A stretch of DNA of 64,000 nucleotides from assembly GCA_964491265.1 (NCBI GenBank), contig CAZBFP010000007.1:58177-122176 (forward strand), written 5' to 3'. The translations under genes and the position numbers were made by a program. Shown one piece after another: positions 10,220-38,492 of this stretch. Every line of letters starts with the position of its first letter. Position 1 is the stretch's first letter. This DNA is from an uncultured Leptospirales bacterium. GTDB taxonomy: Bacteria > Spirochaetota > UBA4802 > UBA5550. Under the pieces are notes generated by a model, which made no database searches, was not told the DNA's origin, and saw only the letters and a program-made list of their open reading frames with translations.

Positions 10220-10229
10220 ACCTGTTCGT

Positions 10230-10463
10230 GTAATTATGCTATTCCTCATATCTGGGCTGTCTCAAAAGTCAGATTTTCGGGGATTTGTCATTCCGGTTTT
10301 GCAATTTCAATTATTGCAAATACCTGAATCTCCTGATTAAATCAGGCCTAAGAGATACCGGCATTACGCTACGCTACAGCCGGTATGACAAGGAAATTAC
10401 TTTTTGGACAGCCCCGATATGAGAGCATTTTATTTCAAATAAAAGTTAAGGAATTAACATTGA
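10230..10463. repeat. composite dispersed repeat: L-module + nested 163-bp MITE (GGGGCTGTC TIRs, 10253..10415) + R-module (GAGCATTTTATTTCAAATAAAAGTTAAGGAATTAACATTGA)
   Basis: Near-identical copy at 62927..63161; R-module also at 20607, 25076, 29247, 48455; terminal inverted repeat GGGGCTGTC/GACAGCCCC read directly. Confidence 0.7.
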
Positions 10464-10510
10464 AGCCTGTTGGAGAATTAAAGTAATCATTAACAGACTG
10501 AAAATTAAAA

Positions 10511-10550
10511 TTAAGGGGGCTTTAGACAGCCCCCTTAATGCTTTTAAAAA
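10511..10550. terminator. bidirectional rho-independent terminator hairpin (TTAAGGGGGC-loop-GCCCCCTTAA then T-run) between convergent genes
   Basis: Perfect 10-bp GC-rich stem followed by TGCTTTT on + strand, A-run on opposite side. Confidence 0.55.
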
Positions 10551-11590: not shown

Positions 11591-11604
11591 CTATTTGGCT
11601 GCCA

Positions 11605-12396: not shown

Positions 12397-12419
12397 TTTA
12401 GCAGGCCCTCCATGTTTTA

Positions 12420-20547: not shown

Positions 20548-20767
20548 CAGGGATATTAAATGCGATAATTTTCAGTGTTAATTTCCTGGTTTTTTTCCGG
20601 GGATAATAGAGCATTTTCAAACAAAAATAAGTTCAGGAATAAATACTGATTTTTAATGATAAATAGCAGATAATTTTTTGATTCTGAATAATTGGGTTTG
20701 ACTTGTTGAATCTAAGTTTAACCGGCAGTATTTGCCCTTGTTTTAAAGAAGCAGGAGGGTAGTCTTC

Positions 20768-22015
20768 TTACCCGACCACCTTGAGCTGTTTGAAGTCACT
20801 TGTGTATGCAGGGCTCAGGTATTCACGGCGCATTTCCCAGCCATTATTAAACCCCCCTGTGCATACATTGATAGCGTTTCTGCCGTATCTGGTATTTATG
20901 CTGTCCATTACTCTTGAAATGTTTCCCTGCTTCTCTATGTTTTCATGACTGGAGAAGAGGTCATACTGCTTTGAGCTGTCCGGTATGATATCTGCAAGTA
21001 TAATCCCGGCTTTTTTATAATTATAGCCGGGCATGTAAATCCGGTTTAAAAGCGACCTGGCCGCATTTATAAAAGCGGGGCTGTAATTTTCTGCAGTATT
21101 AAACAGGGCAGTGGCGGCATTTGAATATTGCGGTCCATCCTTAAATGGATTGGTCGCGATAAAGAGAGTAAGTGCTGACGCGGAACATCTCTGCTCTCTA
21201 AGCTTCTGTGCTGCCCTGGATGTGTATTGTGAAATTGCCTGCATCAGTTCACCCTTTTCTGTAATCAGTTTTCCGAAAGAGCGGGAGGAGCAGATCGTCT
21301 TTTTCGGGGGGATATCTTTTTCCAGATTGAGGCACGCCTTCCCTCTCAGCTCATAAACCATTCTGAGCCCCACGATGGTGAGCTTCTTTTTTATCCAGGC
21401 ATCATCTTTTTCTGTCAGCTTCAGTGCTGTATTAATCCCATGTTTTCTTAACAAATCAGCGTATTGCCGGCCGATCCCCCATATGTGGGCCACATCAAAT
21501 TCTGCAAGAAACTGCGAGATCTCTTCACCGGTTCTGAGTATTGATACTCCGCTGTTTCTCTTGGCGTGATGGTTGGCCGCCTTTGCAAGGGTTTTTGTGG
21601 GGGCTATCCCCACGCTCACCGGTATCCCTGTATGCTGAACTATTATCTCTTTTATAGATCGGCCGTAATCGCTAAGCGGTTCTCTTATACCTTTCAGGTT
21701 AAGGAAAGCTTCGTCAATTGAGTATATTTCTATTTCAGGTGCAAAGGCGGAGAGTGTGTTCATTACCCTTGAGGAGAGGTCGCCATAGAGGGTGTAGTTT
21801 GATGAAAAAATAGATCCTCCTGCCGATTCAAGAAGCGGCAGGCATTTATAAATGGGGGTGCCCATTTTTATTCCAAGGTCTTTTGCTTCCTTTGACAGTG
21901 AAATTATACATCCGTCATTATTGCTTAAAACAACAACAGGGCGGTTTTTGAGTCCAGGCTCAAAGAGCCTTTCGCAGGAAACATAAAAACTGTTGCAGTC
22001 TACCAGGGCGTACAT
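20768..22015 (-). CDS. umuC: translesion DNA polymerase V catalytic subunit UmuC (Y-family polymerase)
   Basis: 415 aa; N-terminus MYALVDCNSFYVSCERLFEPGLKNRPVVVLSNNDGCII; 3 bp downstream of umuD. Confidence 0.9.
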   Translation of the reverse strand: MYALVDCNSFYVSCERLFEPGLKNRPVVVLSNNDGCIISLSKEAKDLGIKMGTPIYKCLPLLESAGGSIFSSNYTLYGDLSSRVMNTLSAFAPEIEIYSIDEAFLNLKGIREPLSDYGRSIKEIIVQHTGIPVSVGIAPTKTLAKAANHHAKRNSGVSILRTGEEISQFLAEFDVAHIWGIGRQYADLLRKHGINTALKLTEKDDAWIKKKLTIVGLRMVYELRGKACLNLEKDIPPKKTICSSRSFGKLITEKGELMQAISQYTSRAAQKLREQRCSASALTLFIATNPFKDGPQYSNAATALFNTAENYSPAFINAARSLLNRIYMPGYNYKKAGIILADIIPDSSKQYDLFSSHENIEKQGNISRVMDSINTRYGRNAINVCTGGFNNGWEMRREYLSPAYTSDFKQLKVVG

Positions 22016-22017
22016 AT

Positions 22018-22461
22018 TTAAACCTTATGTATAACATTAGTAACAACTCCCCAGACCTGAAAATCCATATCTTCAGTAACAGTAACCGGCTGAAAATCTG
22101 GATTTTCCGGGGCAAGGATTATTGTTTTTCTACGTTTAATCATTCTCTTTACGGTCAGTTCCCCGCAGATAGAGGCTATTATAATGCTGTTGTTTTCAGC
22201 TGTCAATGACCGGTCAACTACAAGAATGTCATTGTGATGAATACCGGCGCCGGTCATGGAATTTCCAGAAACACGCAGGCAGAATGTTGCCGAAGGGTGC
22301 TTTACAAGGAGTTCATTAAAGTCCAGCGCCCGTTCTATGTAATCATCAGCAGGTGAGGGGAACCCTGCTTTTATCGTATCGCAGAATAAAGGTATTCTGA
22401 AAGATTCACCTGTTTTAACAGGGATAATTGAATTTTTGTGTATGCTGCTGTAACTGTTCAT
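22018..22461 (-). CDS. umuD: UmuD, LexA-like S24 peptidase subunit of Pol V
   Basis: 147 aa; FPSPADDY, catalytic VSGNSM (Ser) and K in TVKRMIKR; aligns to UmuD cleavage/catalytic regions. Confidence 0.9.
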   Translation of the reverse strand: MNSYSSIHKNSIIPVKTGESFRIPLFCDTIKAGFPSPADDYIERALDFNELLVKHPSATFCLRVSGNSMTGAGIHHNDILVVDRSLTAENNSIIIASICGELTVKRMIKRRKTIILAPENPDFQPVTVTEDMDFQVWGVVTNVIHKV

Positions 22462-22884
22462 GAGAGCAATATAATTACCGCTCTGTTTTAAGTCAACAAA
22501 TGTTTAGTGTTTTGGCGTTATTCAGGAAGAATTAATTCAGGGGTGTTGTTTCGTGGGGAGTTTACCTCTCTGCTTACCCTGTAGAATTTTATTCCAGAAT
22601 CAGAAATGTGCTGAAGCAGCGGAGCTATATCCTTCAAATCTATGCCAGGGTCAAGCCACAGGTCAATATCCTCTTTTCTGATAATAAGAGGCATACGGTT
22701 ATGAATTTCCTCAAAGCGCGTAATCGCATTTAAAAATTATATTTAAACTAAAAAAGAGTTTTTTGCCGGAGTTATTGATTATATTAAAGTATAGGGCTGT
22801 TTTAAAAATTCCGGGTTTCAATCTGTCTGATGGTAAATCGGATGAGGCTGAAGGAAAACCGGTTTTTTCAATTTACGCTCATCA

Positions 22885-24994: not shown

Positions 24995-25116
24995 CAGTAA
25001 TTATTCCTGAAGATATCTTTTGGTGTAACTATGCTGTTTTCTATATCCCTGCCGCCTTCGGCGACGGGGTTATTTGAGCATTTTGTTCCAAATAAAAGTT
25101 AAGGAATTAACATTGA
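24995..25116. repeat. dispersed repeat copy: L-module + GC hairpin (CCCTGCCGCCTTCGGCGACGGGG) + R-module
   Basis: Shares L (CAGTAATTATTCCTGAAGATATCTTT) and R (GAGCATTTTGTTCCAAATAAAAGTTAAGGAATTAACATTGA) with copies at 10230, 29166, 62927. Confidence 0.65.
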
Positions 25117-25297
25117 TATCAAATAGAGAGTTTTAATTGTTGAAATTGAATTAAACATGAATTAAAGTGTTTTAAAGCCTATCTGATATGTTGTGCTTTA
25201 CTGAAATTAAATTAAATAAAATAAAATACCGGATGCAATTATACTGTTCACCAGTGTAATTTTATATAAAGAAAGAATCTGAGAAGGTGATAAGATA

Positions 25298-28200
25298 ATG
25301 GACGCAACAGAGGGTAAAATGAACTGGACCGGGAAAATCGCCTCAATTTTTGTGAGAAACGGCAATCTTTCACTTATACTGGTTATAGCATTTTTTATAT
25401 GGGGAATTATTTCATTTTTGGCTACACCGAAGCAGTATAATCCTAAAATTACTGCACCATCCTTTGAAATTATAATAGATTATCCCGGAGCAGACAGGAG
25501 TGAGGTTGTGGAGGTGGTTACAAAGCCTCTGGAAAATATAATCACTGATATTGCCGGAGTAGAGGATGTCTACTCTTATTCAGTTAAAGGGGGAAGGGCT
25601 GTCTTTACAGTTAATTTCTACGTGGGGGAGGACCCGGATTCCGCAAAGATAATGCTTGACGACAGGATAAGAAGCCAAATGTACCGGATACCTTTTGGAG
25701 TCAATGATCCCTTAATCAGATCAATAGATCCTGATGATGTACCTGTGATGACAATTGCTGTAACATCAAAAGATACTGATCCTGTAGCCCTTCGTAAATT
25801 CGGTTTTAAACTCAGGGACAGACTCAGTACGGTAGAGGGTGCATCTAATATAGGAGTAATCGGAGGAAGAAGAAAGGAACTGGCCATTATGGTGGACCCC
25901 TTTAAACTTGAAAGAATCGGTATAGGGCTCATGGATATTCAGAATGCTCTTGCCAGGGACAATATCTACCTCCCCTCCGGCTACATAAAGAGTAAATCCG
26001 AATACATCCCACTTGAAGCGTCGAGTCTGATTCAGAAGCCGTCAGATCTGGAAGGGAGTATTGTTGTCACCGGCGACTACGGGCAGATCCTCCTTAAGGA
26101 GGTCGCCGATATAATAGAACGTATCGAGGAAGTGGAAGAATATGTTCGTCATGCAGTGAAAAAAGAGGGAGAGATTGAGGTAGCTGAGTCAGTAATTTTA
26201 CTCAGTATTGCCAAGATGAAAGGGCAGAATATTACAGACGTTACAGATCGGATAAGGAATGAACTGGAGCATCTGGAGTCGGGATTTATTCCTGAAGGTA
26301 TAAACACTGATATAATCGTAAATGAAGGGAGGGTAGCTGCTGAGGAGATCGGAGGCCTTGTTATTAATCTTTTCACAGCCATACTGATAGTTGTGATAAT
26401 CCTTTTTCTCTTTCTTAGCAGGAGAGCCGCCTTTCTCGTGGCTGTGTCTATCCCCCTGACCCTGGCGTGTGTTTTTATTATCGGGCTCTTCGCAGGGCAG
26501 AATATAAACAGGATTACCCTCTTTGCCCTGATACTGTCACTGGGCCTTCTCGTTGACAGTGCCACTGTTGTAATAGAGAATATCGTAAGAAACCTTAAAG
26601 ATCTGGATGATGAGGAAAGTCGGGTCGATTCTATAATCTCATCTGTAAATGAGGTAGGGCCGGGGCTCTTTATGTCAACTGTTACAACGGTTCTTGCCTT
26701 TTTCCCCATGGCATTTGTTACAGGAATGATGGGGCCATATATGGGGCCCATACCTTTTTTTGTACCTGCAGCTATAATTGTTTCACTGCTTCTGTCTCTG
26801 TCAATTAATCCCTGGATGGCTTCTGTTATTCTTAAGTCAGAAAGCAGTGACGGGAAAAATGGAAAGATGAGAAAAAACAGGTACACTAAAGCTTTGAGTG
26901 ATGCAGGCGTGGTTATATTTGATTTTTACAGAAATTTTCTGCATTCACTATTGACGCAGCGGAAAAAAAGAAAGAGAACCCTTCTTGTGATTCTTGCACT
27001 GGTTATCATTTCTCTCCTTCTCCCTGCTGTAAAGCTTGTAAAGTTCAGGATGCTCCCCAAGGCAGACAGGGAACAGTTTTTTCTCTATATAGACATGCCT
27101 GCCGGCACTCCCCTGGAGGAGACTCTGGATGTTGCATCAAAGTGTGAGGAATATCTATTTGAGAATGAAAATATTAAAATGATTCAGAGCTACGTGGGCA
27201 CCCCTCCTGTGCTTGACTTTAACGGACTTTTCAGGAATGTTTCTGCAAGAACTGAAAGTCATCAGGCCACTCTGCGTGTGGGTCTCACTGAACCGCGTGA
27301 CAGAGCACTTAAGTCAGAGGAGATTGTGGAAAAGCTCCGTCCCGGATTAATCAAAGCGTCTGAGATGATGTCCCGGAGAAAAATAAAATTGAAACTTGTT
27401 GAGGACCCCCCGGGTCCTCCTGTGCAGTCAACCTTTCTGGTGCGTGTCAGGGGGTATGATGAAAAATGCTGCATGAATATAGCAGAAGATCTCTACGGCC
27501 ACGTCAAAAAAATTGAAGGCGTGGTTGATACAGATACATCTATAGAGGATGATACTGATACTATTCATCTTAAGGTGGATCATAAGAGAGCTTTTGTAAG
27601 CCGGATAAGCGCAAAACGTATTGTGAGAAGTTTGAATACGGCATTTTCAGGAGACATTGTAGGGATATACCATAATACAGGTAATATTGAGCAGGAGTAT
27701 ATTACTTTGCGGTTTGACAGGAAGTTCCGTATGGATCCGGCAATTCTTGAAAATATTTATCTTTTCAATGATCTGAGGATTAAGCTGCGTCTCAGTGATC
27801 TCGTGACAATAGAGAAGATTCCCACGGAGAAAGCCTTGAGGCGTGAAAACAGTGTAAACACTATTTATCTTTACGGTGATATGGAAAACCGCTCAGTCAC
27901 CTATGCAGCAATCGATTTCCTCAAGTTTCTTTATAGCTACAGGCTTCCCGACGGGGAGGGGGAACTCACGAAATTTTCTCTATCCGGCGCTGATTACAAT
28001 ACCTCAGAGGGCAGGAGTGTAAGTATAAGCATCGGCGGAGAATGGGAGCTGACTCTGGAGGTGTTCCGGGACCTGGGTATTGCAATGGCTTTTGCTCTAT
28101 TTCTTATCTACATGGTTCTTGTTGCACAGTTCAGGTCCTATACAGATCCCCTGATCATTATGTCCACCATCCCGCTGAGCCTGATTGGAGTTATGCCGGG

Positions 28201-28597
28201 ATTTATGATCCTGGGATATACAAGCGGAATTTACTTTAATGCTACATCAATGATCGGTGTTATAGCCCTTGCCGGTATTGCGGTTAATAACTCAATAATA
28301 CTTCTTGAATATCTCAATTCATTTAAAAACAGCTGTATAAGTATTGAGGATGCCCTTCTCCGCGCAGGCCTTACCAGATTCAGGCCTATTGTGCTCACTA
28401 CTGTGACAACCATGCTGGGGTCACTTACTATAGCAGGTGACCCGGTGTGGGCCGGACTTGCCTATGCTCTGATTCTGGGGCTTGCTGTCTCATCATCACT
28501 GACACTGATTGTATTCCCGGCACTTTACTATGTAATTAATGGGGAAAAATGGGATATGCAGATGCAGTCCGCAGAGGGGGTAAAAGTGGATTGCTAG
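25298..28597 (+). CDS. RND-family efflux permease (AcrB/HAE-like)
   Basis: 1099 aa; 12-TM RND topology with two large periplasmic loops; N-terminal AcrB-like region; RBS GAAGGTGA. Confidence 0.85.
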   Translation: MDATEGKMNWTGKIASIFVRNGNLSLILVIAFFIWGIISFLATPKQYNPKITAPSFEIIIDYPGADRSEVVEVVTKPLENIITDIAGVEDVYSYSVKGGRAVFTVNFYVGEDPDSAKIMLDDRIRSQMYRIPFGVNDPLIRSIDPDDVPVMTIAVTSKDTDPVALRKFGFKLRDRLSTVEGASNIGVIGGRRKELAIMVDPFKLERIGIGLMDIQNALARDNIYLPSGYIKSKSEYIPLEASSLIQKPSDLEGSIVVTGDYGQILLKEVADIIERIEEVEEYVRHAVKKEGEIEVAESVILLSIAKMKGQNITDVTDRIRNELEHLESGFIPEGINTDIIVNEGRVAAEEIGGLVINLFTAILIVVIILFLFLSRRAAFLVAVSIPLTLACVFIIGLFAGQNINRITLFALILSLGLLVDSATVVIENIVRNLKDLDDEESRVDSIISSVNEVGPGLFMSTVTTVLAFFPMAFVTGMMGPYMGPIPFFVPAAIIVSLLLSLSINPWMASVILKSESSDGKNGKMRKNRYTKALSDAGVVIFDFYRNFLHSLLTQRKKRKRTLLVILALVIISLLLPAVKLVKFRMLPKADREQFFLYIDMPAGTPLEETLDVASKCEEYLFENENIKMIQSYVGTPPVLDFNGLFRNVSARTESHQATLRVGLTEPRDRALKSEEIVEKLRPGLIKASEMMSRRKIKLKLVEDPPGPPVQSTFLVRVRGYDEKCCMNIAEDLYGHVKKIEGVVDTDTSIEDDTDTIHLKVDHKRAFVSRISAKRIVRSLNTAFSGDIVGIYHNTGNIEQEYITLRFDRKFRMDPAILENIYLFNDLRIKLRLSDLVTIEKIPTEKALRRENSVNTIYLYGDMENRSVTYAAIDFLKFLYSYRLPDGEGELTKFSLSGADYNTSEGRSVSISIGGEWELTLEVFRDLGIAMAFALFLIYMVLVAQFRSYTDPLIIMSTIPLSLIGVMPGFMILGYTSGIYFNATSMIGVIALAGIAVNNSIILLEYLNSFKNSCISIEDALLRAGLTRFRPIVLTTVTTMLGSLTIAGDPVWAGLAYALILGLAVSSSLTLIVFPALYYVINGEKWDMQMQSAEGVKVDC

Positions 28598-28721
28598 CCC
28601 GCAGGTAATATTGCAGTTTCCTGTATAGATAAAAAAATTGTAATAGTAACCGGTATTCTAATTGCAGTCACATTCCGGCTGTAACGGCTATAAGAAAAAA
28701 TTTAACAAAGGAGCGGATAAA

Positions 28722-28889
28722 ATGGAACTGGCAAAAACTCAGGATAATACTTTTGATCTTAAAGCACTCACATTCACACAGTTAAAAACCATAAAAGATG
28801 CCTGCAAGGCATACGCGAAACAGGGATCAAAATCCTCAGGTGATCTTGCCTCTGAAATTGAGGAGATGATGGATAAGATGACACTGTAG
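28722..28889 (+). CDS. small hypothetical protein (55 aa)
   Basis: ATG 28722 preceded by AAGGAG; ORF track 28662..28889. Confidence 0.3.
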   Translation: MELAKTQDNTFDLKALTFTQLKTIKDACKAYAKQGSKSSGDLASEIEEMMDKMTL

Positions 28890-29165
28890 GTTTACATGAT
28901 GTTTTTTGATGCATCATGATTACTAAAGGGAATAAAGGCAGAGCAATAGCAATCAGTCATGCCTTAAAAGAAATTCTCGTAAGTCTTGGAACATTAAGGC
29001 TGAGAACATGATTTATATATAAAGCATATCCCCGGCCTATTTTAAAGGCCTGGGGGAGGGTGTAGATTCTGGTTTAATTATCTGCTTGACTATACAAATA
29101 AAATATATACTCTAAGATAGAATATGCTGGTTCTATCAATCATAATGGCAATTACACAACTAAAC

Positions 29166-29286
29166 CAGTAATTATTCCTAAAGATATTTTTTAGTGCAAT
29201 AATGATGTTTTCCATATCCCCGCCGCCTACGGCGGCGGGGATATTAGAGCATTTTATTTTAAAAAAAGTTAAGGAATTATCACTGC
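29166..29286. repeat. dispersed repeat copy: L-module + hairpin CCCCGCCGCCTACGGCGGCGGGG + R-module, upstream of hsdM
   Basis: Direct sequence similarity to copies at 24995 and 62927. Confidence 0.65.
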
Positions 29287-29401
29287 AACTTAACAAAAGT
29301 TTCTTTCCGGATAATTTCTGAGTCTGATAGATATTGCTTTAGCAACAGTAAAAATAGATGAATCGCATTTAATATAGTAATAATTATACAAAGGAACATT
29401 A

Positions 29402-30973
29402 ATGGCAAAGCAGAAACAGAATAATAACAGCAGTGAACCAATAGAAAAGCAGCTCTGGAAAGCTGCGGATAAGCTGAGGAAGAATATTGATGCTGCTGAG
29501 TATAAGCATGTGGTGCTGGGGCTCATATTTCTTAAATACATCTCCGCAGCTTTTGAAGAACTATATGAAAGACTGAAAGCCGGTGAAGGGGAATATGCCG
29601 GAGCAGACCCGGAAGATAAGGATGAATACAAGGCAGAGAACGTATTCTTTGTGCCTGAAACAGCCCGCTGGTCCTATATGCAGTCAAAAGCAAAGCTCCC
29701 CACTATAGGGAAAGATGTAGATGATGCCATGGATGCCATTGAAAAAGATAATCCCTCCCTTAAAGATGTGCTTCCGAAGGTATATGCCAGGGGCAATCTT
29801 GATCCGGTGAATCTTGGCGGTCTTATTGATCTGATTTCAAATATCGCTCTTGGTAAAGCTAAAGCCAGAAGCGCTGATCTTCTGGGCCATGTTTTTGAAT
29901 ACTTTCTCGGTGAGTTTGCCCTTGCTGAAGGGAAAAAGGGGGGGCAGTTCTATACTCCCCGCAGTGTTGTAGAACTTCTTGTAGAGATGCTTGAACCTTA
30001 TAAAGGACGGGTATTTGACCCCTGCTGCGGTTCAGGAGGGATGTTTGTTCAGTCAGAGAAATTTGTGCTTAATCACAGCGGGAAGATTAACGATATTTCA
30101 ATCTACGGACAGGAGAGTAATCTTACAACCTGGCGACTTGCCAAAATGAATCTTGCATTCCGGGGGATCGACAGCTCTCAGGTAAGATGGAACAATGAGG
30201 GCTCCTTTCTAAATGATACTCATAAAGATTTAAAAGCTGATTATGTAATAGCCAACCCTCCATTTAATGACAGTGACTGGAGCGGTGAACTGCTAAAGAA
30301 GGATGGCCGATGGCAGTTTGGAACTCCGCCTTCAGGTAATGCCAACTATGCATGGATACAGCACTTTCTTTATCACTTAAGCCCTACAGGAATAGCGGGC
30401 TTTGTTCTTGCCAAGGGATCTCTTACTTCAAAAAGCTCAGGAGAAGGGGATATCCGGAAATCACTGATTGAAGCAGGGCTTGTTGACTGTATAGTAAACC
30501 TCCCTGCAAAGCTATTTCTTAATACCCAGATTCCCGCATTTCTATGGTTTCTCAGCAGGGATAAAGGTAATGGCAAATACCGCAGCCGTACTGATGAGAT
30601 ATTATTCATAGATGCCCGGAATGAAGGTCACCTGATAAACCGCCGCTCTAAAGAGCTCTCTGAAGAGGATATTCAGAGGATAGCTGATACATATAGAAAA
30701 TGGAAAGATCCGAAAGGGGGATATGAAGATATTAAAGGTTTCTGTAACTCTACAGGTATTGATAGAGTGAGGGAGCTGGATTATGTTTTAACCCCGGGGA
30801 GATATGTGGGCCTTCCGGATGAAGAGGATGACTTTGATTTTAATGAAAGGTTTACCAGCCTTAAAGCTGAGTTTGAAGCTCAACTTAAGGAGGAGGCAGA
30901 GCTGAATAAGGTTATACTTGAGAATTTGAAGAAGGTGAACCCTTCGGCAGGCTCAGGGCGAGGTCTGGGATGA
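29402..30973 (+). CDS. hsdM: type I restriction-modification system methyltransferase subunit HsdM (N6-adenine)
   Basis: 523 aa; AdoMet motif [11 protein letters not shown]; catalytic NPPFN; N-terminal HsdM_N region. Confidence 0.95.
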
Positions 30974-32148
30974 GTGTGGTTCGGCAGGCTCACCAACCGT
31001 GGAGAGAATGTAAGCTGGGGGATGTTATTTATTCCAATGTTTCTAGTATAACTGCAAGCTATCCTCATAAAACAATTAAGTATCTTGATACTGGGTCGAT
31101 TACTTGTGGCAAGATAGATTCATTTCAAGAAATACCCTTAAGCGAGGCACCTTCAAGGGCAAAAAGGCTTGTAAAGGATGGTAGTATTGTTTATTCAACT
31201 GTCCGCCCCATACAGAGGCATTATGGTTACATTACAAATCCTCCAGAAAACCTTGTGGTCTCGACTGGATTTTCTGTGATAGAAACTCAACCTGACTTGG
31301 CTGATTCTTCATTTATTTATAACCTCCTGGCATTAAAAGATGTTATCGAATTACTTGATACGATTGCTGAAGGTTCAACTTCAGCTTATCCATCATTGAA
31401 ACCTGCCGACATTGAAAATCTCGACATCCTCCTCCCTCCTCTCCCCGAACAAAAGGCTATTGCCGGGGTTCTTTCCAGTCTCGACGACAAGATCGACCTT
31501 CTGCACCGGCAGAATAAAACACTGGAAGCCATGGCTGAAGCGTTGTTCCGGCAATGGTTTGTGGTAGAGGCTGATGCGAGCTGGGAGGAAGTGCCTTTAT
31601 CGACTTTCGCAGACAATATTCGTGATAATGCAAGAGTTGGAGAATTGTCAAAACATAAGTATTATGTTGGATTGGAACATATACCGCGTAGAAGAGTAAT
31701 TCTCGATTCATGGGGCGAAACTGGTTCCTTAGAAAGCAACAAATCAATCTTTAAACCACATGACATTCTATTTGGAAAACTCCGTTCCTACTTCCATAAA
31801 GTGGTATTTACCCCGATTGGCGGTGTATGTTCAACAGATATTCTCGTGATAAGACCCAAAAATGAGCAATGGCTTCCTTTCTGCCTCTTTTGGTTTTTTA
31901 GCAAAGAAGTTGTTGAGCATTCAGACCTTGGTTCTGGTGGCACTCGAATGCCCAGGACAAATTGGGAAATCGTAAGTGGCTACAAAGTACCATGCCCTAC
32001 CGAAGAACTGATTTTAGAGTTCAATAGAGTCGTTCGACCATCTCTTTGCAGAATGTTTCAAAATATTGATGCCATCCGCACCCTCGAAAAGCTCCGTAAC
32101 ACCTTGTTGCCCAAGCTGATGTCCGGTGAAGTGAGGGTAGCTGTATGA
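30970..32148 (+). CDS. hsdS: type I RM specificity subunit HsdS (two target-recognition domains)
   Basis: 392 aa; conserved central and C-terminal repeats [24 protein letters not shown]... / [17 protein letters not shown]; overlaps hsdM stop (ATGA). Confidence 0.9.
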
Positions 32149-33251
32149 GTAGCAGCAGGAAGGATAGTATGCCATGTAAAGACGCGATTAATCGCGTCTT
32201 TACGGTAGATGCATTATCCACAGAAGATCATCTCACCGCAGAGGATCGTATCGCCACAGAAGATCATGACACCGCAGAGGATCGTATCACCACAGAAGAT
32301 CATCTCACCACAGAAGATCATGTCACCGCAGAGGATCGTATCACCACAGAAGATCATGACACCGCAGAGGATCGTATCGTCACAGAAGATCATGTCACCG
32401 CAGAGGATCGTATCACCACAGAAGATCATGACACCGCAGAGGATCGTATCGTCACAGAAGATCATGTCACCGCAGAGGATCGTATCACCACAGAAGATCA
32501 TGACACCGCAGAGGATCGTATCGTCACAGAAGATCATCTCATCACAGAGGATACAGTCATCAAAAAAGGTCATATCACCAGAAAAGATAACCTTTACAAA
32601 AACAAATACCGAATCTCGTCAACCAGATTGCAGAATTGGGATTACGGATGGAACGCCGCATATTTTATCACAATATGCACGAAAAATCGTCTGCCTTTTT
32701 TTGGCAATGTTAACAATGGGAAAATGATGATGACGGATGCGGGATTGATTGTAGAAAAATATTGGCATGAAATCCCGGCGCATTTTTCGTTCGTTTCGTT
32801 GGGGACGTTCGTCGTAATGCCGAATCATATTCACGGAATTGTTGTTATCAATAAAAAAAATGACGGTTATGGAAATACCGATCGTTATCGTAGAGACGCG
32901 ATTAATCGCGTCTCTACGTTATCCGTTGACGAAACGTTATCCGTTGACGAAACGTTATCCGTTGACGAAACGTTATCCGTTGACGGAACGTTATCCGTTG
33001 ACGGAACGGCATCCGTTAAACGGGGCGGTATAACCGGGAATAACAATCCCATGATTAATGATAATTTATCCAAAATAATCAGATGGTATAAAGGACGTTC
33101 ATCATTTGAATCACGAAAAATTGCACCTGAATTTGCATGGCAATCACGGTTCTACGAACACATCATCCGCAATGATGAATCATATTATCGAATATCTGAA
33201 TATATAAATAACAACCCCGCAAACTGGCAAAAGGATGATTTTTATGCCTAA
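32145..33251 (+). CDS. IS200/IS605-like HuH-Y1 transposase of RAYT type, chimeric with in-frame palindromes and 18-nt tandem repeats
   Basis: 368 aa single frame; RAYT core WDYGWNAAYFITICTKNRLPFFG...VVMPNHIHGIVVI (HuH) and LSKIIRWYKGRSS...WQSRFYEHIIRNDESY (Y1 helix); N-terminal 120 aa and a 50-aa internal loop encoded by repeats. Confidence 0.6.
   Translation: MSSSRKDSMPCKDAINRVFTVDALSTEDHLTAEDRIATEDHDTAEDRITTEDHLTTEDHVTAEDRITTEDHDTAEDRIVTEDHVTAEDRITTEDHDTAEDRIVTEDHVTAEDRITTEDHDTAEDRIVTEDHLITEDTVIKKGHITRKDNLYKNKYRISSTRLQNWDYGWNAAYFITICTKNRLPFFGNVNNGKMMMTDAGLIVEKYWHEIPAHFSFVSLGTFVVMPNHIHGIVVINKKNDGYGNTDRYRRDAINRVSTLSVDETLSVDETLSVDETLSVDGTLSVDGTASVKRGGITGNNNPMINDNLSKIIRWYKGRSSFESRKIAPEFAWQSRFYEHIIRNDESYYRISEYINNNPANWQKDDFYA
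32176..32203. repeat. perfect 28-nt palindrome GTAAAGACGCGATTAATCGCGTCTTTAC
   Basis: Read directly; second perfect palindrome with identical core at 32890..32917. Confidence 0.9.
32219..32560 (+). repeat. tandem array of ~19 x 18-nt units (CACAGAAGATCATNNCAC / CGCAGAGGATCGTATCRY), in frame (TEDHxT / AEDRIx)
   Basis: Contiguous head-to-tail units with 72-nt higher-order periodicity; no spacers (not CRISPR). Confidence 0.9.
32890..32917. repeat. perfect 28-nt palindrome GTAGAGACGCGATTAATCGCGTCTCTAC (GTAG...CTAC ends)
   Basis: Read directly; lies inside the RAYT ORF between the HuH motif and the Y1 helix. Confidence 0.9.
32919..33008 (+). repeat. tandem array of 5 x 18-nt units TTATCCGTTGACGAAACG (LSVDET), in frame within RAYT ORF
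   Basis: Three exact copies, two with A>G variant, one degenerate. Confidence 0.9.
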
Positions 33252-33498
33252 GAAGCGATCCCTTCCTGACAATCAGATCACCTTTTATCAGACCCCGGAC
33301 GGTACTGTAAATATAGAGGTGATGTATGCCAATGAGAACATCTGGCTTTCTCAAAAGCGGATGGCTGAACTTTTTGACTGCACTCCGGACAATATTTCTC
33401 TTCATCTTAAGAATATTTACTCAGAGAAGGAATTGGATGAAAGATCAACTGCCGAGGATTTCCCGGTAGTTCAAATAATCGAGGTTTGTTATGGATGA
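33235..33498 (+). CDS. truncated paralog of RhuM-family N-terminal domain
   Basis: 87 aa; TFYQTPDGTVNIEVMYANENIWLSQKRMAELF parallels N-terminus of next gene (IYTGPDGRVNVEVYIQDETVWLTQKRMAELF). Confidence 0.5.
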   Translation: MIFMPKKRSLPDNQITFYQTPDGTVNIEVMYANENIWLSQKRMAELFDCTPDNISLHLKNIYSEKELDERSTAEDFPVVQIIEVCYG

Positions 33499-34510
33499 GA
33501 ACACAACTAATTTTCTTATTTATACAGGTCCAGATGGGCGGGTCAACGTTGAAGTATATATTCAGGATGAAACCGTTTGGCTAACCCAGAAACGAATGGC
33601 TGAACTATTTTCAGTGGATGTTCGTACGATAAGTGAGCATCTGCGCAATATATTTAAAAGTAATGAATTGGACGAAGCTGCAACTATCCGGAAAATCCGG
33701 ACAGTTCAAAAAGAAGGTTCCCGTGATGTTTCACGGCTCTTGGATTTTTATAGTTTGGACGGTATCATAGCTGTTGGCTATCGGGTAAACTCCTACCAGG
33801 CTACACGTTTCCGTGTATGGGCCACAAAAGTCCTGAAGGAATACATAATTAAGGGGTTTGTCCTGGATGACGAACGTCTCAAACAGGGGAAAACCGTTTT
33901 CGGAAAAGATTATTTCGAAGAACTCCTTGAGCGTATTCGTGAAATACGGGCAAGCGAAAGGCGATTCTACCAGAAAATTACCGATATTTACGCGCTGGCC
34001 GCAGATTATGATAAGAATGCACCGATTACCAAAGAATTTTTTGCGACAGTGCAGAATAAACTTCACTGGGCTATAACCGGTAAAACTGCGGCTGAAATCA
34101 TTTACGATTCAGCGGATGCAAAAAAGATCTACATGGGATTAACAAACTGGAAACAGGCTCCTGACGGGAAAATATTAAAATCGGATGTGAGCGTCGCTAA
34201 AAATTATCTTAATAAAGCACATATTGATGAACTGAACAGAATTGTCTCTGCCTATCTCGATCTTGCTGAAAATCAGGCAAAACGGGGTATTATTACCCGA
34301 ATGGAAGACTGGGTAAAATTTCTGAATGATTTTCTGGAACTTTCACGATACCCTATTCTGAACGAAAAAGGGAGAGTTTCCGCTCTTGAAGGAAAACTGA
34401 AAGCTGAACAGGAGTTTGAAGAATATCGAGTCATTCAGGATGAAAATTATATCTCAGATTTCGATAAAGAAATCAAACGGATTACAGGGCACAGTGATGA
34501 TAAGAAATAA
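33491..34510 (+). CDS. RhuM-family (virulence protein RhuM-like) protein
   Basis: 339 aa; characteristic N-terminal domain plus conserved central region GYRVNSYQATRFRVWATKVLKEYIIKGFVLDDERL; family often embedded in type I RM loci. Confidence 0.8.
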   Translation: MDENTTNFLIYTGPDGRVNVEVYIQDETVWLTQKRMAELFSVDVRTISEHLRNIFKSNELDEAATIRKIRTVQKEGSRDVSRLLDFYSLDGIIAVGYRVNSYQATRFRVWATKVLKEYIIKGFVLDDERLKQGKTVFGKDYFEELLERIREIRASERRFYQKITDIYALAADYDKNAPITKEFFATVQNKLHWAITGKTAAEIIYDSADAKKIYMGLTNWKQAPDGKILKSDVSVAKNYLNKAHIDELNRIVSAYLDLAENQAKRGIITRMEDWVKFLNDFLELSRYPILNEKGRVSALEGKLKAEQEFEEYRVIQDENYISDFDKEIKRITGHSDDKK

Positions 34511-37500
34511 AATAACAGAATCATCTGTAGAACAGTACGCCATAGAACTCCTCCAGGCTCAGGGATATGAATATCTTCATGGCCAGGAAATCGCTCCAGA
34601 CAGTGATAATCCCCAGCGCTCATCATTTGATGAAGTATTACTCTTAAATATTCTTAAAGACGCAATAGCAGCAATCAATCCATCTATCCCTCCTGATGCT
34701 CAGGCTGACGCATTAAAACAGATTCAGAGGATCAACTCTCCTGAGCTTATTACAAACAATGAAACCTTTCATAGAATGCTGACCGAAGGGATAAACATAA
34801 CCTATCGCAAAGACGGTAACAGCAGAGGTGATAAGGTCTGGCTTATTGATTATGAAAATCCCGGGAACAACCGGTTTTTCGCAGTTAATCAGTTTACAGT
34901 CACAGATCACAGCAGAACAGGACATACTGTAAATAAGCGGCCCGACATTGTGCTGTTTGTAAACGGCATCCCCCTTGTGGTTATTGAACTTAAAAACCCG
35001 GCGGTTGAAGATGCAAATATAAATTCAGCATTCAGGCAGCTTCAAACCTATGTAGATGCTATCCCCGCGCTGTTTGCATATAACGGAATTATGATTATAT
35101 CAGACGGACTTGAAGCAAGGGCAGGTACTATATCGTCCGGACTGAGCAGATTCATGTCCTGGAAAACTGCTGACGGCAGAACAGAAGCATCCTCCCTTAT
35201 CAGCCCGCTTGAGGTAATTATTCAGGGTATGCTTAACAAAGAGACACTCATTGACCTTATCCGTCATTTTATTGTATTTGAGCAGTCAAAACGAGAGGAT
35301 AGGGACACCAGAATTATTACTATTCAGACGGTAAAAAAGCTGGCTGCTTATCATCAGTACTATGCTGTAAACAAAGCTGTCTGGTCAACTATGAGGGCTT
35401 CAGGATATATTTATCAGGCCGAATACACCTCTAAAGCTATTCCGGTAATGGATTCCTTTGATGTATATAAAGTTGATAAAAAAGTATCTCAAAAGTCGGG
35501 GGATAGAAAAGGGGGTGTGGTATGGCATACCCAGGGTTCCGGCAAATCACTATCAATGGTGTTTTACACTGGCCGCATAGTCCTGGCTCTCAATAATCCC
35601 ACTGTTCTGGTTATAACAGATCGTAACGATCTTGATGATCAGCTTTATGATACCTTTGCTTCCTCAAAGCAGTTATTAAGACAGGAGCCGGTACAGGCAA
35701 AGGATAGAGATCACCTTAAAACACTGCTTAAGGTTGCCTCCGGAGGAGTTGTTTTTACTACAATTCAAAAGTTCCAGCCGGATGCTTCGGCAGGCTCAGC
35801 AACCGGAGCAAAGTATGAAACCCTTTCAGAAAGAGAAAATATAATCGTAATAGCTGATGAAGCTCACCGGACTCAGTACGGCTTCAAAGCAAAGACTATT
35901 GATGATAAAGATGAGAATGGGAATGTCATAGGCAAGAAAGTAGTTTACGGCTTTGCCAAATATATGAGAGATGCTTTGCCTAATGCTACCTATCTCGGAT
36001 TTACCGGTACACCCATAGAAAATACAGATGTTAATACTCCGGCTGTATTCGGCAATTATGTGGATGTCTATGATGTGAGCCAGGCAGTGGAAGATGGCGC
36101 CACAGTAAGGATATTCTACGAAAGCAGACTGGCAAAGATTAATCTCAGTGATGAAGGGAGAACCCTGATTAAAGATTTTGATGATGAGCTTGCTGAAGAA
36201 GAGGTATCTGAATCACAGAAAGCAAAGGCTAAATGGACTCAGCTTGAAGCACTTATCGGCAGTTCTCAGAGGATTAAACAGGTTGCTGAAGATATCGTTA
36301 AACACTTTACGCTTCGTCAGGAGGTTTTTGAGGGGAAAGGAATGATTGTTGCAATGTCCAGGAGAATTGCAGCTGAACTTTATAAAGAGATAATAGCTCT
36401 CAAGCCTGAATGGCATAGTGATGAATTGCGAAAAGGTGCTGTTAAGGTAGTAATGACATCTGCTTCATCTGATGGTCCGGAAATTTCGAAGCATTACACA
36501 ACAAAGGAACAGCGGGGCATATTATCTGACCGTATGAAAGATCCTGATGATGAACTCAAACTGGTTATAGTCAGAGACATGTGGCTTACAGGTTTTGACG
36601 TACCCTCACTCCATACCCTTTATATGGACAAGCCTATGAAGGGACACAACCTGATGCAGGCAATAGCCAGGGTGAATCGGGTTTACAAAGATAAAAAGGG
36701 GGGGCTTATAGTCGATTATCTGGGCATAGCAGCTGATCTTAAAGAGGCTCTTTCATTTTACTCCGACTCAGGAGGGAAAGGCGATCCGGCGGTGGCTCAG
36801 GAGCAGGCTGTGCAGTTGATGCTGGAAAAGCTGGAAATTGTATCGCAGATGTTTCATGGCTTTGCATATGAGGAATACTTTGAAGCAGATACAGGGAGAA
36901 AGCTCTCACTTATCCTTGAAGCTGAGGAGCATATCCTGGGACTTGAAAACGGCAGAAAGAGATATATTGATGAAGTAACTGCCCTGTCTCAGTCTTTTGC
37001 CATAGCAGTACCACATGACCAGGCAATGGATGTGAAGGATGAGGTCGCATTCTTTCAGGCTGTTAAGGCCCGGCTTGTAAAATTTGACAGTACAGGTACA
37101 GGAATGACCGATGCAGAGATGGAGAGTGCGATCCGTCAGATTGTTGATAAAGCCCTTGTGTCGGATCAGGTGATTGATATTTTTGACGCCGCGGGTATAA
37201 AGAAACCTGATATCTCTATTCTTTCAGATGAATTTCTTCTTGAAGTAAAGAACATGCAGCATAAGAACCTTGCTCTTGAACTCCTTAATAAACTCTTAAA
37301 TGATGAAATCAAATCCCGGACCAAAAAGAACGTGGTACAGTCTAAAAGCCTTATGGATATGCTGCAGGATTCGATTAAACGCTACCACGCAAAGGTAATA
37401 ACAGCAGCTGAAGTCATTGAAGAACTGATTGAGCTGTCAAAAGAGATCAACAGGATGGATAAGGAGCCGGAAGAGATGGGGCTTACAGATTATGAGTACG

Positions 37501-37766
37501 CCTTCTATTCGGCTATAGCGGATAACAATAGCGCAAAAGAGGTTATGGGTCAGGAAAAACTGAGGGAACTGGCTGTAGTTTTATACAACAAAGTTAAAGA
37601 AAACGCTTCTATAGACTGGACTATTAAAGAGAGCGTAAAGGCAAAACTGAAAGTAATAGTCAAACGGATTCTTCGACAATACGGTTATCCTCCAGATATG
37701 CAGATGCTGGCAACTGAAACTGTGCTGAAACAGGCGGAATTAATTGCTGAGGAACTGGTTAAATAA
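34497..37766 (+). CDS. hsdR: type I RM restriction endonuclease/helicase subunit HsdR
   Basis: ORF track 34416..37766; ATG 34497 chosen; SF2 helicase motifs GSGKS, DEAH (IADEAHRTQ), motif VI QAIARVNR; N-terminal nuclease domain. Confidence 0.95.
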   Translation: MIRNKITESSVEQYAIELLQAQGYEYLHGQEIAPDSDNPQRSSFDEVLLLNILKDAIAAINPSIPPDAQADALKQIQRINSPELITNNETFHRMLTEGINITYRKDGNSRGDKVWLIDYENPGNNRFFAVNQFTVTDHSRTGHTVNKRPDIVLFVNGIPLVVIELKNPAVEDANINSAFRQLQTYVDAIPALFAYNGIMIISDGLEARAGTISSGLSRFMSWKTADGRTEASSLISPLEVIIQGMLNKETLIDLIRHFIVFEQSKREDRDTRIITIQTVKKLAAYHQYYAVNKAVWSTMRASGYIYQAEYTSKAIPVMDSFDVYKVDKKVSQKSGDRKGGVVWHTQGSGKSLSMVFYTGRIVLALNNPTVLVITDRNDLDDQLYDTFASSKQLLRQEPVQAKDRDHLKTLLKVASGGVVFTTIQKFQPDASAGSATGAKYETLSERENIIVIADEAHRTQYGFKAKTIDDKDENGNVIGKKVVYGFAKYMRDALPNATYLGFTGTPIENTDVNTPAVFGNYVDVYDVSQAVEDGATVRIFYESRLAKINLSDEGRTLIKDFDDELAEEEVSESQKAKAKWTQLEALIGSSQRIKQVAEDIVKHFTLRQEVFEGKGMIVAMSRRIAAELYKEIIALKPEWHSDELRKGAVKVVMTSASSDGPEISKHYTTKEQRGILSDRMKDPDDELKLVIVRDMWLTGFDVPSLHTLYMDKPMKGHNLMQAIARVNRVYKDKKGGLIVDYLGIAADLKEALSFYSDSGGKGDPAVAQEQAVQLMLEKLEIVSQMFHGFAYEEYFEADTGRKLSLILEAEEHILGLENGRKRYIDEVTALSQSFAIAVPHDQAMDVKDEVAFFQAVKARLVKFDSTGTGMTDAEMESAIRQIVDKALVSDQVIDIFDAAGIKKPDISILSDEFLLEVKNMQHKNLALELLNKLLNDEIKSRTKKNVVQSKSLMDMLQDSIKRYHAKVITAAEVIEELIELSKEINRMDKEPEEMGLTDYEYAFYSAIADNNSAKEVMGQEKLRELAVVLYNKVKENASIDWTIKESVKAKLKVIVKRILRQYGYPPDMQMLATETVLKQAELIAEELVK

Positions 37767-37788
37767 AGGTTTCACTTTTAAAGAGAAT

Positions 37789-38136
37789 ATGGAGTACACC
37801 ATGAAATTTGTCAACCGCTCATACCTGATAGTTAAGCCCAGGCAGCCATATATTGACTGGGTTAGAAGCTTCGATGATTCTGTAGAGATAGACGATTTAA
37901 TTATTCAGAAAACAATTTATCTTGTTGATGAGCCAGAATTTGATTCCCCTGAAGAGATAAATAACATTATCAAAAAGGTTTGCCGGGATATATTTGTTAG
38001 TGAGCTGGAAGCATGGTATACAGATAAGGAGAGCTTCCCCAAAGATATGACATATAAAGCTTTTAAGCAGTGGTTTGATGTTGAATATGTCGATCTCGGG
38101 TTTGATCTTTCTGAGTATGAATTGATAGCGGAGTAG
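37789..38136 (+). CDS. hypothetical protein (island cargo)
   Basis: ORF track 37744..38136; internal ATGs at 37789/37801 with GGAG; no family assignment. Confidence 0.4.
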   Translation: MEYTMKFVNRSYLIVKPRQPYIDWVRSFDDSVEIDDLIIQKTIYLVDEPEFDSPEEINNIIKKVCRDIFVSELEAWYTDKESFPKDMTYKAFKQWFDVEYVDLGFDLSEYELIAE

Positions 38137-38143
38137 TTAAAAT

Positions 38144-38329
38144 GATCCCTCTCACTCATATGCTCAGGCATTACTGGATCAGGGGGTAGGGCTTGAAGAC
38201 ATTCAGTCTCTACTGGGCCACGAGGATATAAAAACTACTCAAAAAAGGTATGCCATGTTTGCAAGGCCCGATCTTCACAGTAAGGCGGAAAAGATCAGTA
38301 ATGTCATACGCTTTAAAAGAGTCGGGTAA
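38144..38329 (+). pseudogene. C-terminal remnant (~60 aa) of a tyrosine recombinase/integrase
   Basis: Translation HSYAQALLDQGVGLEDIQSLLGHEDIKTTQKRYAMF matches integrase box II (H..R...LLGH...TT..Y); in-frame stop directly upstream, so no N-terminal domains. Confidence 0.6.
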
Positions 38330-38380
38330 TATGGTCAATATATGGTCAACGCTATCTAAATTTGCACTACAAATTAAATC

Positions 38381-38415
38381 AAGACACAAAAAAGCCCTGA
38401 TTAAATCAGGGCTTA
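38381..38415 (-). terminator. rho-independent terminator downstream of tRNA-Pro (stem AAGCCCTGAT/ATCAGGGCTT + TTTTTTG on minus strand)
   Basis: Reverse complement reads AAGCCCTGATTTAATCAGGGCTTTTTTGTG. Confidence 0.6.
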
Positions 38416-38418
38416 AAT

Positions 38419-38492
38419 TCGGGGTGACAGGATTTGAACCTGCGACCACATGACCCCCAGTCATGTGCGCTACCTGGCTGCGCTACACCCCG
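38419..38492 (-). tRNA. tRNA-Pro (anticodon GGG)
   Basis: Reverse complement CGGGGTGTAGCGCAGCCAGGTAGCGCACATGACTGGGGGTCATGTGGTCGCAGGTTCAAATCCTGTCACCCCGA folds as cloverleaf; anticodon loop CTGGGGG; T-loop GGTTCAAATCC; CCA not encoded. Confidence 0.85.

Follow-up and report, generated by a model that had tools for sequence, protein, structure and literature searches.

What is the type I restriction–modification (RM) locus beside tRNA-Pro(GGG) in this genome: the cargo of an element that integrated at the tRNA, or DNA that reached the same place by another path? We analysed it within the window, by which we mean the whole stretch of 64,000 nucleotides; the host is shown to be an uncultured Leptospirales-like spirochaete. 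In our view the block is probably a strain-variable defence segment beside the degraded scar of an integration at tRNA-Pro(GGG). That the RM operon arrived together with the integrase whose remnant lies there cannot be shown.

A complete RM operon with embedded genes

The operon comprises seven open reading frames in the order hsdM-hsdS-[TnpAREP]-[rhuM-N]-rhuM-hsdR-orf130:

29402-30973, plus strand: hsdM, type I methyltransferase subunit (Pfam N6_Mtase 358.7 bits, HsdM_N 94 bits)
30970-32148, plus strand: hsdS, specificity subunit (Pfam Methylase_S in two stretches; PADLOC Specificity_I)
32169 (or 32145)-33251, plus strand: RAYT-type HUH/Y1 ORF (Pfam Y1_Tnp 24-26 bits)
33244-33498, plus strand: rhuM-N ORF, 84 aa, the RhuM N-terminal domain as a partial duplicate
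33491-34510, plus strand: rhuM (Pfam PF13310 369 bits, positions 1-249 of 252)
34497-37766, plus strand: hsdR, full-length restriction/translocase subunit (Pfam HSDR_N, SWI2_SNF2, T1R_D3-like and T1RH-like_C)
37744-38136, plus strand: orf130, 130 aa, its start overlapping the hsdR end; accompanies the RM module

Every gene listed by the first-pass annotation, from hsdM to the terminal hypothetical gene, lies close to where it had been placed. The predicted type I RM operon is complete by gene content: the profiles identify HsdM (PADLOC MTase_I, 646 bits), an HsdS with two target-recognition domains, and an HsdR with nuclease, ATPase and C-terminal domains (NCBIfam hsdR model, 596.7 bits). Searches with Pfam, PADLOC and NCBIfam profiles gave no family match for orf130. 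The rhuM gene encodes a full-length Virulence_RhuM domain and corresponds to the PADLOC candidate defence gene PDC-S05 (513 bits), for which antiphage activity has been reported (bioRxiv 10.1101/2024.09.26.614923). The 84-aa ORF in front of it aligns with no more than the N-terminal ~75 positions of PADLOC's RhuM-type PDC-S05 profiles, and shares 75% DNA identity with the start of rhuM.

It had been suggested that the insertion between hsdS and hsdR uncouples restriction from modification. The gene arrangement speaks against this: each of the seven ORFs overlaps its neighbour or lies almost directly against it, and terminator prediction gave no plus-strand hit from hsdS to hsdR, or anywhere else inside the operon. 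To judge by gene packing alone, the operon would form one transcription unit in which methylation, restriction and RhuM are co-expressed. The conservation of rhuM-hsdR-orf130 in the relative L141, and embedded cargo being typical of this HsdR family, also argue against uncoupling.

The embedded RAYT gene

The RAYT ORF exceeds the cut-off of Pfam Y1_Tnp (26.3 bits against 23) and falls under that of NCBIfam REP_Tyr_transpos (55.2 bits against 80). [quoted passage not shown] The ORF also holds two in-frame 18-nt tandem arrays (32218-32588 and 32916-33017). Neither palindromes nor arrays figured in the earlier reader's description of the gene. The same palindrome occurs in homologues, where it is translated as RDAINRVST or VETRLIASL and accompanied by peptide repeats. 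In composition the gene stands out, with a CpG observed/expected ratio of 2.09 and a codon-usage distance of 0.239 that, among the genes tested, is exceeded only by the 84-aa rhuM-N ORF (0.244).

TnpAREP subclass 2.4 (RAYT group 4) is characterized by an HUH motif and a C-terminal Y motif, by an in-frame double-foot GTAG...CTAC REP between the two, by a GT[AG]G foot, and by short DNA repeats that make the insert variable in length (Quentin et al. 2018, PMC6006769). The window gene matches this subclass as judged by motifs and the in-frame REP: its translation contains both the HUH motif PNHIHG and the C-terminal WQSRFYEHIIR, and it shares the in-frame REP and the repeat-based length variation. 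It differs from the subclass in lying inside a type I RM operon, and in having a second REP and an array of ~20 units of 18 nt at its 5' end.

Relatives of the operon and turnover of its cargo

HsdR has a relative at 96% identity, in which rhuM and hsdR stay together as a unit; beyond it lies a plateau of 75-78% across many phyla, which points to an operon prone to horizontal transfer. For the neighbouring RND pump, identity within Spirochaetota falls to 60-64%, and this gene, unlike HsdR, looks vertically inherited.

L141 shares positions 29095-37884 at 90-93% nucleotide identity; 29095 is the end of its contig on that side, and orf130 is covered at 92.7% up to the contig end on the other. 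In hsdS the match is limited to the conserved centre and C-terminus, which is what a different specificity would lead one to expect. Between hsdS and rhuM, L141 carries other cargo, with the final 60 nt of the RAYT gene retained and the rhuM-N ORF present in a further decayed state. The same 339-aa rhuM follows immediately upstream of hsdR, and rhuM-hsdR-orf130 is one conserved unit. This comparison shows a cargo slot between hsdS and rhuM that turns over, with rhuM-hsdR-orf130 remaining together. In two further relatives (L142 and L143) MNT-HEPN, Gabija-like, SLFN, RhuM and HigB-type genes lie inside the operon, with no integrase nearby. The HsdR family of the window is spread across phyla and routinely accompanied by embedded defence or toxin genes.

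The tRNA-Pro(GGG) flank is an integration site

Immediately to the right of the operon, four features follow one another:

38141-38329, plus strand: integrase remnant, the last 62 codons of a tyrosine integrase, reading towards the tRNA
38333-38350, plus strand: 18-mer GGTCAATATATGGTCAAC, with two GGTCAA(T/C) half-sites
38392-38414, minus strand: predicted intrinsic terminator hairpin of tRNA-Pro, of the type found at occupied sites
38419-38492, minus strand: tRNA-Pro(GGG), whose 3' 42-45 nt are the att core in relatives

The recombinase C-terminus, previously read as 60 aa with an in-frame stop upstream, proved to be 62 codons (NDPSHSYAQALLDQGVGLEDIQSLLGHEDIKTTQKRYAMF...VG*) directly preceded by a TAA stop, and the minus-strand tRNA-Pro with its own terminator was likewise confirmed. 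The remnant aligns with positions 134-166 of 172 of Pfam Phage_integrase (28.1 bits, cut-off 27.1; E 2e-6). These codons beside the tRNA are all that is left; the window contains no intact integrase gene. The junction between orf130 and the remnant spans 4-14 nt; it fits an illegitimate join, and such a join could equally have brought the RM operon later.

The only two database homologues of the remnant, in the related Leptospirales-like contigs L138 and L140, also adjoin tRNA-Pro(GGG), and each contig combines the truncated integrase with the 18-mer and the tRNA as in the window. The remnant is 67-69% identical to these equally truncated copies at the same site. With pN of 0.19-0.24 against pS of 0.74-0.93, the divergence of the integrase remnants took place under purifying selection. 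The 18-mer is identical in the window and in the attR of L138 and L140, in a spacer that is not otherwise conserved, and we regard GGTCAATATATGGTCAAC as a candidate arm-type site for integrase binding. Islands of 3.2 kb and 9.7 kb in L138 and L140 are bounded by directly repeated copies of the tRNA 3' half (42-45 nt), the att repeats measuring 45 nt at 89% identity in L138 and 196 nt at 95% in L140. L140 holds tandem remnants of integrative elements. The DNA adjoining the remnant changes from relative to relative.

The two nearest species representatives (L001 and L002) are syntenic with the window from the aminotransferase via UvrC and an AMP-binding gene to the tRNA, and their homology stops ~35 nt past it, just beyond the terminator. 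At this break L002 has an intact, unrelated integrase and a PrimPol/AAA_25 gene; past the tRNA, L001 has neither an integrase nor an RM system. The 3' flank of tRNA-Pro(GGG) is thus a real integration site and the right edge of the block an attachment scar, with 38141-38460 shown to be the end, on the attR side, of an element specific for tRNA-Pro(GGG): integrase 3' end, 18-mer, terminator and tRNA 3' half.

One reading, which we think improbable, is that the remnant, the 18-mer and the tRNA 3' half together form a maintained, CIME-like landing pad, at which cargo without an integrase of its own (defence or metabolic genes) is captured or exchanged by an integrase acting in trans. Such a function would account for copies that, in all known cases, are truncated and yet conserved at the protein level: the truncation points of the four differ, the 18-mer is invariant, and the L140 island consists of metabolic genes only, flanked by 196-nt repeats in which the integrase 3' end is contained. 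However, the fragments share no common start codon or ORF, differing truncation points are what random deletion would produce, the second att site is missing from the window, and database searches found no full-length integrase of this family that could serve as the cognate enzyme.

The left boundary and the composition of the block

If the scar marks one end of an element, a repeat of the tRNA 3' end would be sought at the other:

28598-29401, plus strand: spacer from the RND stop to hsdM, containing a 55-aa ORF and the sequence upstream of the RM module
29166-29279, plus strand: MITE-like repeat, 115 nt, dispersed, with a perfect GC-rich hairpin at 29216-29242; inserted upstream of hsdM

The direct repeat that the first-pass annotation proposed to look for, having seen no convincing one by eye, is absent: neither the window nor ~10 kb further left (~48 kb in all) contains an attL, the best match being 24/45, which is chance level, whereas the same test gave 38 and 43 of 45 in L138 and L140. 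Position 29166, from which the earlier finding was counted, is not an island end but the start of the dispersed MITE-like repeat, which is 85% identical to 24995-25109, has partial copies elsewhere in the window and is missing at the corresponding point of L141. The 55-aa ORF (28722-28889) matched no family in the Pfam, PADLOC or NCBIfam profiles. Homology with L144, a relative of the RND gene (87% identical), ends at 28595; both flanks of its RND gene differ from those in the window, and a PIN toxin-antitoxin pair follows it. Among the relatives found, none carries the RND gene together with tRNA-Pro on a single contig, so that their adjacency in an 'empty' genome is without example. As there is no attL within ~48 kb, the left limit of the element is not fixed and its extent is undefined.

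GC content matches the flanks (0.42 in the block, 0.41 in the flanks), and the dinucleotide signature deviates chiefly over 31-35 kb. In codon usage hsdM, hsdS and hsdR are host-like, while the RAYT and rhuM genes are compositional outliers. Of the earlier description as a degraded integrative element carrying a defence locus, the tRNA-Pro scar stands, with its integrase remnant and the att repeats of L138 and L140; the absent attL, the flank-like GC, the host-like hsd codons and the open left limit lend it no support.

These compositional data could also be read as a sign that there is no island, the block being vertically inherited chromosome and the tRNA a mere rearrangement breakpoint between diverged genomes. 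The block is unchanged in all contigs from the same population, and left flanks that differ in every relative are expected of diverged genomes; GC and hsd codons like those of the host point the same way. Nevertheless, we consider this reading highly implausible: an integrase remnant with conserved arm-like repeats adjoins the tRNA, relatives have att duplications, the nearest HsdR relatives are in unrelated phyla at identities above those of housekeeping genes within the clade, and cargo has turned over in L141.

A model for the origin of the block

In the explanation that we favour, of a variable defence segment beside a degraded scar, an element of the remnant's family would have integrated into tRNA-Pro by site-specific recombination. 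Later deletions may have removed the integrase N-terminus and attL, immobilizing the element. Deletions into the tRNA would be selected against, so that the integrase 3' end survives as a buffer. Inside the former element would lie the RM operon, about equally likely to have been its original cargo or to have come in later as a replacement.

A less likely course, though one that we take seriously, is that the RM operon arrived independently and later, in a slot that was already hypervariable, for instance through illegitimate recombination or through homologous replacement by way of conserved flanks, and that the remnant is the scar of an older, unrelated element. The stops of orf130 and of the integrase frame are 4 nt apart, an abrupt junction; with it go the absent attL, the host-like codons of the hsd genes, the differing DNA beside each remnant, and relatives of the RM family that sit between housekeeping genes without an integrase. 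Yet flanking homology tracts to mediate a replacement were not identified, and in L138 and L140 the DNA adjoining the remnant is inside att-bounded islands, which by analogy would place the RM operon within the former boundaries.

Comparison with known systems

Bacterial defence islands of this sort are already known, and the locus is an ordinary one among them. It shows tRNA-Pro(GGG) to be an integration hotspot used repeatedly in this uncultured lineage, and adds a further example of a type I RM operon as a carrier of embedded genes (RhuM/PDC-S05, RAYT). This is of use for annotation and defence-island surveys but raises no fresh questions; if anything is mildly unusual, it is the truncation of the same integrase in parallel in several lineages.

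CIMEs are cis-mobilizable elements left by decayed ICEs in streptococci, in which both att sites are kept. As with these, the att site retains remnants that have no functional integrase and may accumulate in tandem, as in L140; the window differs in having the attR side only, where a CIME has two att sites. tRNA-linked genomic islands with degenerate integrases are known as immobilized or 'anchored' islands. The window resembles them in its position at the tRNA 3' side, the tyrosine-integrase remnant by the att site, the defence cargo and the variability between relatives, but differs in lacking a second att repeat, in its host-like GC and hsd codons, and in an extent that cannot be defined.

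In the E. coli prr locus, PrrC lies between hsd genes. The window shares with such RM operons with embedded defence genes (prr, PADLOC PDC candidates) the extra genes between hsdS and hsdR and the co-directional arrangement. The RAYT-type HUH enzyme is, to our knowledge, not a known defence gene, and it is this enzyme, together with a duplicated RhuM N-terminal ORF, that sets the operon in the window apart from them.

Gene content of the block

The block, bordered by an RND efflux pump gene and a minus-strand tRNA-Pro(GGG), is a defence island of an ordinary kind beside a tRNA integration scar, and its right boundary at the tRNA is well supported. Seven co-directional ORFs lie between the RND stop codon and the tRNA. 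The genes listed in the first-pass annotation (the type I restriction-modification (RM) genes, a RAYT-like gene, a RhuM fragment, rhuM, the integrase end, and the tRNA with its terminator) were all confirmed.

Features of the block and its borders (window coordinates, strand, feature)
25298-28597, RND efflux pump gene
29402-30973, plus, hsdM
30970-32148, plus, hsdS
32169 (or 32145)-33251, plus, RAYT-type gene
33244-33498, plus, 84-aa ORF matching only the N-terminal part of RhuM-type PADLOC profiles
33491-34510, plus, rhuM
34497-37766, plus, hsdR
37744-38136, plus, orf130 (130-aa ORF)
38141-38329, C-terminal fragment of a tyrosine integrase (last 62 residues), directly after the orf130 stop
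38392-38414, terminator belonging to tRNA-Pro
38419-38492, minus, tRNA-Pro(GGG)

The RM system is complete and the RhuM protein full-length (Pfam, PADLOC, NCBIfam), while the 84-aa ORF shares 75% DNA identity with the start of rhuM. The embedded genes are members of described families; PADLOC PDC-S05, to which RhuM corresponds, is reported to protect against phages (bioRxiv 10.1101/2024.09.26.614923). The block is present in every contig from the same population, and these contigs match the window at ~100% identity.

Comparing the composition of the block with that of its flanks gave a mixed result. Its GC content (0.42, against 0.41 in the flanks) and the codon-usage distances of hsdM (0.105), hsdS (0.139) and hsdR (0.080), which fall within the flanking-gene range, do not set it apart, but its dinucleotide signature deviates. 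Mapped in 3-kb windows with the arrays masked, the deviation peaks over 31-35 kb, corresponding to the RAYT and rhuM genes, and is moderate over hsdR and likewise over the RND gene. The RAYT core (codon distance 0.239, CpG o/e 2.09) and rhuM (0.162 and 1.20) are outliers.

tRNA-Pro(GGG) as an integration site

For the flanking AMP-binding gene, the best matches (86% aa identity) are in L001 and L002, two MAGs that bear the label uncultured Leptospirales. Both are collinear with the window through the aminotransferase, TPR, UvrC and AMP-binding genes up to tRNA-Pro(GGG), and in both the homology ends ~35 nt beyond the tRNA, immediately after the terminator. Past this break, L001 carries rubrerythrin, histidine kinase and binding protein genes, and L002 an intact 375-aa integrase and a PrimPol/AAA_25 gene.

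The same tRNA is adjoined by an integrase remnant in two related Leptospirales-like contigs, L138 and L140. Both are arranged as in the window, with an integrase 3' end, a ~90 nt spacer and an opposite-strand tRNA-Pro(GGG). Beyond the tRNA, L140 has the UvrC, aminotransferase, rSAM and RecO neighbourhood seen on the right-hand side of the window; in L138, UvrC is the sole match at the thresholds applied. Both contigs show the classical att signature. In L140, positions 373-568 repeat 10100-10295 (196 nt, 95%), with the repeat end in the tRNA anticodon loop and 9.5 kb enclosed. In L138 the tRNA 3' half recurs 3.2 kb off as a 45-nt copy (89%), and the enclosed interval holds the integrase fragment along with an IS3 transposase and a PIN toxin-antitoxin pair. 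The synteny break in L001 and L002, together with the remnant arrangement and att repeats of L138 and L140, confirms the earlier proposal that tRNA-Pro(GGG) serves as an integration site. Each 196-nt repeat of L140 takes in both the 3' end of the integrase and the 3' half of the tRNA, an indication of serial integration at this tRNA.

A terminator of the form CCTGA..TCAGG follows tRNA-Pro at the remnant-bearing sites (window, L140 and the L138 attR) and in L002, where the element is different. The CTCTG..CAGAG type is found in L001, where an integrase is absent, and at the displaced L138 attL. This distribution suggests that the tRNA 3' flank in the window came from the element.

Two further observations concern the content of these sites. 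The 9.5-kb segment of L140 (373-10295) contains only metabolic genes (ferredoxin, 2-oxoacid:ferredoxin oxidoreductase, GSDH, FMN reductase and hemerythrin). L002, the closest species representative, carries a different element at the same tRNA (2829-12423), whose 375-aa integrase reads away from the tRNA and which, with its PrimPol/PriCT/AAA_25 primase-helicase and small ORFs, resembles a satellite or P4-like element. The L002 integrase was discounted as a relative of the window remnant, showing no similarity and the opposite orientation.

Decay of the integrase

An in-frame stop codon lies just upstream of the 62-residue fragment, which scores 28.1 bits against Pfam Phage_integrase, barely over the cut-off. 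A search of 5.8 billion proteins found only two homologues, those of L138 and L140, at 67% identity and themselves shortened (103 and 53 aa). Phage genomes gave only 33-46% matches to generic integrases, and no full-length relative was found in these searches. Directly after the integrase stop, the 18-mer GGTCAATATATGGTCAAC is identical in the window, L138 and L140, while the remaining spacer is not conserved; we infer that it represents candidate arm-type binding sites.

Across 39 aligned codons of the three remnants, 74-93% of synonymous sites differ, against 19-24% of non-synonymous sites (pS 0.74-0.93, pN 0.19-0.24). The sequences therefore still encoded a functional protein as they diverged, and truncation followed afterwards. 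The four known copies are each truncated at a different point (window 38141-38350; L138 10001-10360; L140 10001-10210 and 373-470). The simplest reading is that related elements were inactivated repeatedly and independently, in which case the integrase 3' end would survive because deletions running into the tRNA would be harmful. A maintained landing pad is another conceivable reading, which we regard as less likely than repeated, independent inactivation.

The left limit

The direct repeat of the tRNA 3' end sought on the strength of the first-pass annotation did not emerge. The 64-kb window and ~10 kb to its left were searched by exact and 3-mismatch patterns, by blastn-short with 7-nt words and by sliding Hamming comparison (probes of 45, 30, 25 and 56 nt, both strands), with shuffled controls. 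The tRNA 3' half has no second copy there; at 24/45, the closest match is no better than in shuffled sequence. The same test recovers 38/45 in L138 and 43/45 in L140. Simple insertion of the RM operon into the integrase gene would leave the N-terminal half of the integrase on the left; this half was not found left of the RM block, where the sole ORF encodes an unrelated 55-aa protein, and this scenario was rejected.

A close relative of the RND gene (92% aa, 87% nt) on the 4.7-kb contig L144 matches the window only over 25129-28595. The RND gene and 170 nt upstream are conserved, a PIN toxin-antitoxin pair follows the RND stop, and the upstream gene also differs. Sequence downstream of the RND stop is thus variable, and the variable zone may extend further left than the RND gene, perhaps as far as the umuCD region (20768-22694). 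None of the contigs recovered joins the RND gene to tRNA-Pro in an unoccupied state: in the RND protein search, the contig of the 92% relative is too short to reach the tRNA and a 64% relative lacks synteny, and the best matches in a metagenome scan with the RND protein (58-62% identical) have no neighbour genes in common.

In the umuCD region, the minus-strand genes umuC and umuD adjoin a SRAP-domain fragment of 58 aa that is annotated in the population contigs. Three genes there have elevated GC3 (0.44-0.50), namely umuC (0.486) and the adjacent PqiA-like (0.444) and hyp195 (0.495) genes; the value for umuD is 0.385. The RND gene is itself flanked by two direct copies (24995-25109 and 29166-29279, 85% identical) of a MITE-like dispersed repeat of 115 nt, which contains a perfect GC-rich hairpin and has partial copies at 10416-10456, 20598-20617 and 62924-62944.

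The proposal of a degraded integrative element carrying the RM operon holds for the tRNA scar at the right edge. The left boundary was not located, and the operon may or may not have been cargo of this integrase's element.

Spread and cargo turnover of the RM operon

HsdR has one 96% relative, on contig L141, followed by a plateau at 75-78% identity that takes in Gammaproteobacteria, Firmicutes, Lentisphaerota, Nitrospinales, Aminicenantes, Riflebacteria and spirochaetes. By comparison, UvrC of the window is only 62% identical to that of L138 or L140, and RND pump identity drops to 60-64% inside Spirochaetota. These differences in identity indicate that the RM operon has spread horizontally.

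Homology between L141 and the window covers 29095-37884 (90-93% nt identity), but L141 lacks the 115-nt repeat that lies upstream of hsdM at 29166-29279. Its hsdM-hsdS gap holds ORF6N (PDC-S05-like) and PD-Lambda-3_A-like genes, and between hsdS and rhuM the RAYT gene is replaced by 212-aa and 864-aa genes without a family match (all within L141 1735-6969). Still retained are the final 60 nt of the RAYT gene and a degraded version of the 84-aa ORF. The hsdS-rhuM slot thus turns over while rhuM, hsdR and orf130 stay together. The 212-aa and 864-aa proteins may be unknown defence cargo.

Elsewhere in this HsdR family (L142 and L143), the operon encloses either MNT-HEPN genes or SLFN, RhuM, Gabija-like and HigB-type genes. 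In L143, where both flanks were recovered, it sits between housekeeping genes, and no integrase was found nearby at either locus. The RM block had no match among plasmids.

In classical type I systems, hsdR as a rule has a promoter of its own. The suggestion that the inserted genes uncouple hsdR is not supported by the predicted gene arrangement: from hsdM to orf130 every start or stop overlaps or nearly abuts the next, the hsdS-hsdR interval has no predicted terminator on the plus strand, and embedded genes are the norm for this RM family.

The RAYT gene

The RAYT gene encodes an HUH motif (PNHIHG) and the motif WQSRFYEHIIR. It contains two perfect palindromes, GTAAAGACGCGATTAATCGCGTCTTTAC (32176-32203) and GTAGAGACGCGATTAATCGCGTCTCTAC (32890-32917), which are GTAA/GTAG-footed; a tandem array of 18-nt units, in frame, comes after each of them (32218-32588 and 32916-33017). 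The first array has 7 units in one same-population assembly (L043) against 20 in the window, which may be real variation or assembly collapse. Among 42 homologues inspected from the best 150 of 23,350, nearly all have the same palindrome, with peptide repeats; depending on frame, it is translated as RDAINRVST or VETRLIASL. No paper was found that mentions the peptide motifs DAINRVST and ETRLIASL. We had considered the REP-plus-array structure possibly new and dropped this idea, as Quentin et al. (PMC6006769) already describe the feature at the DNA level: the palindromes and arrays fit their TnpAREP subclass 2.4.
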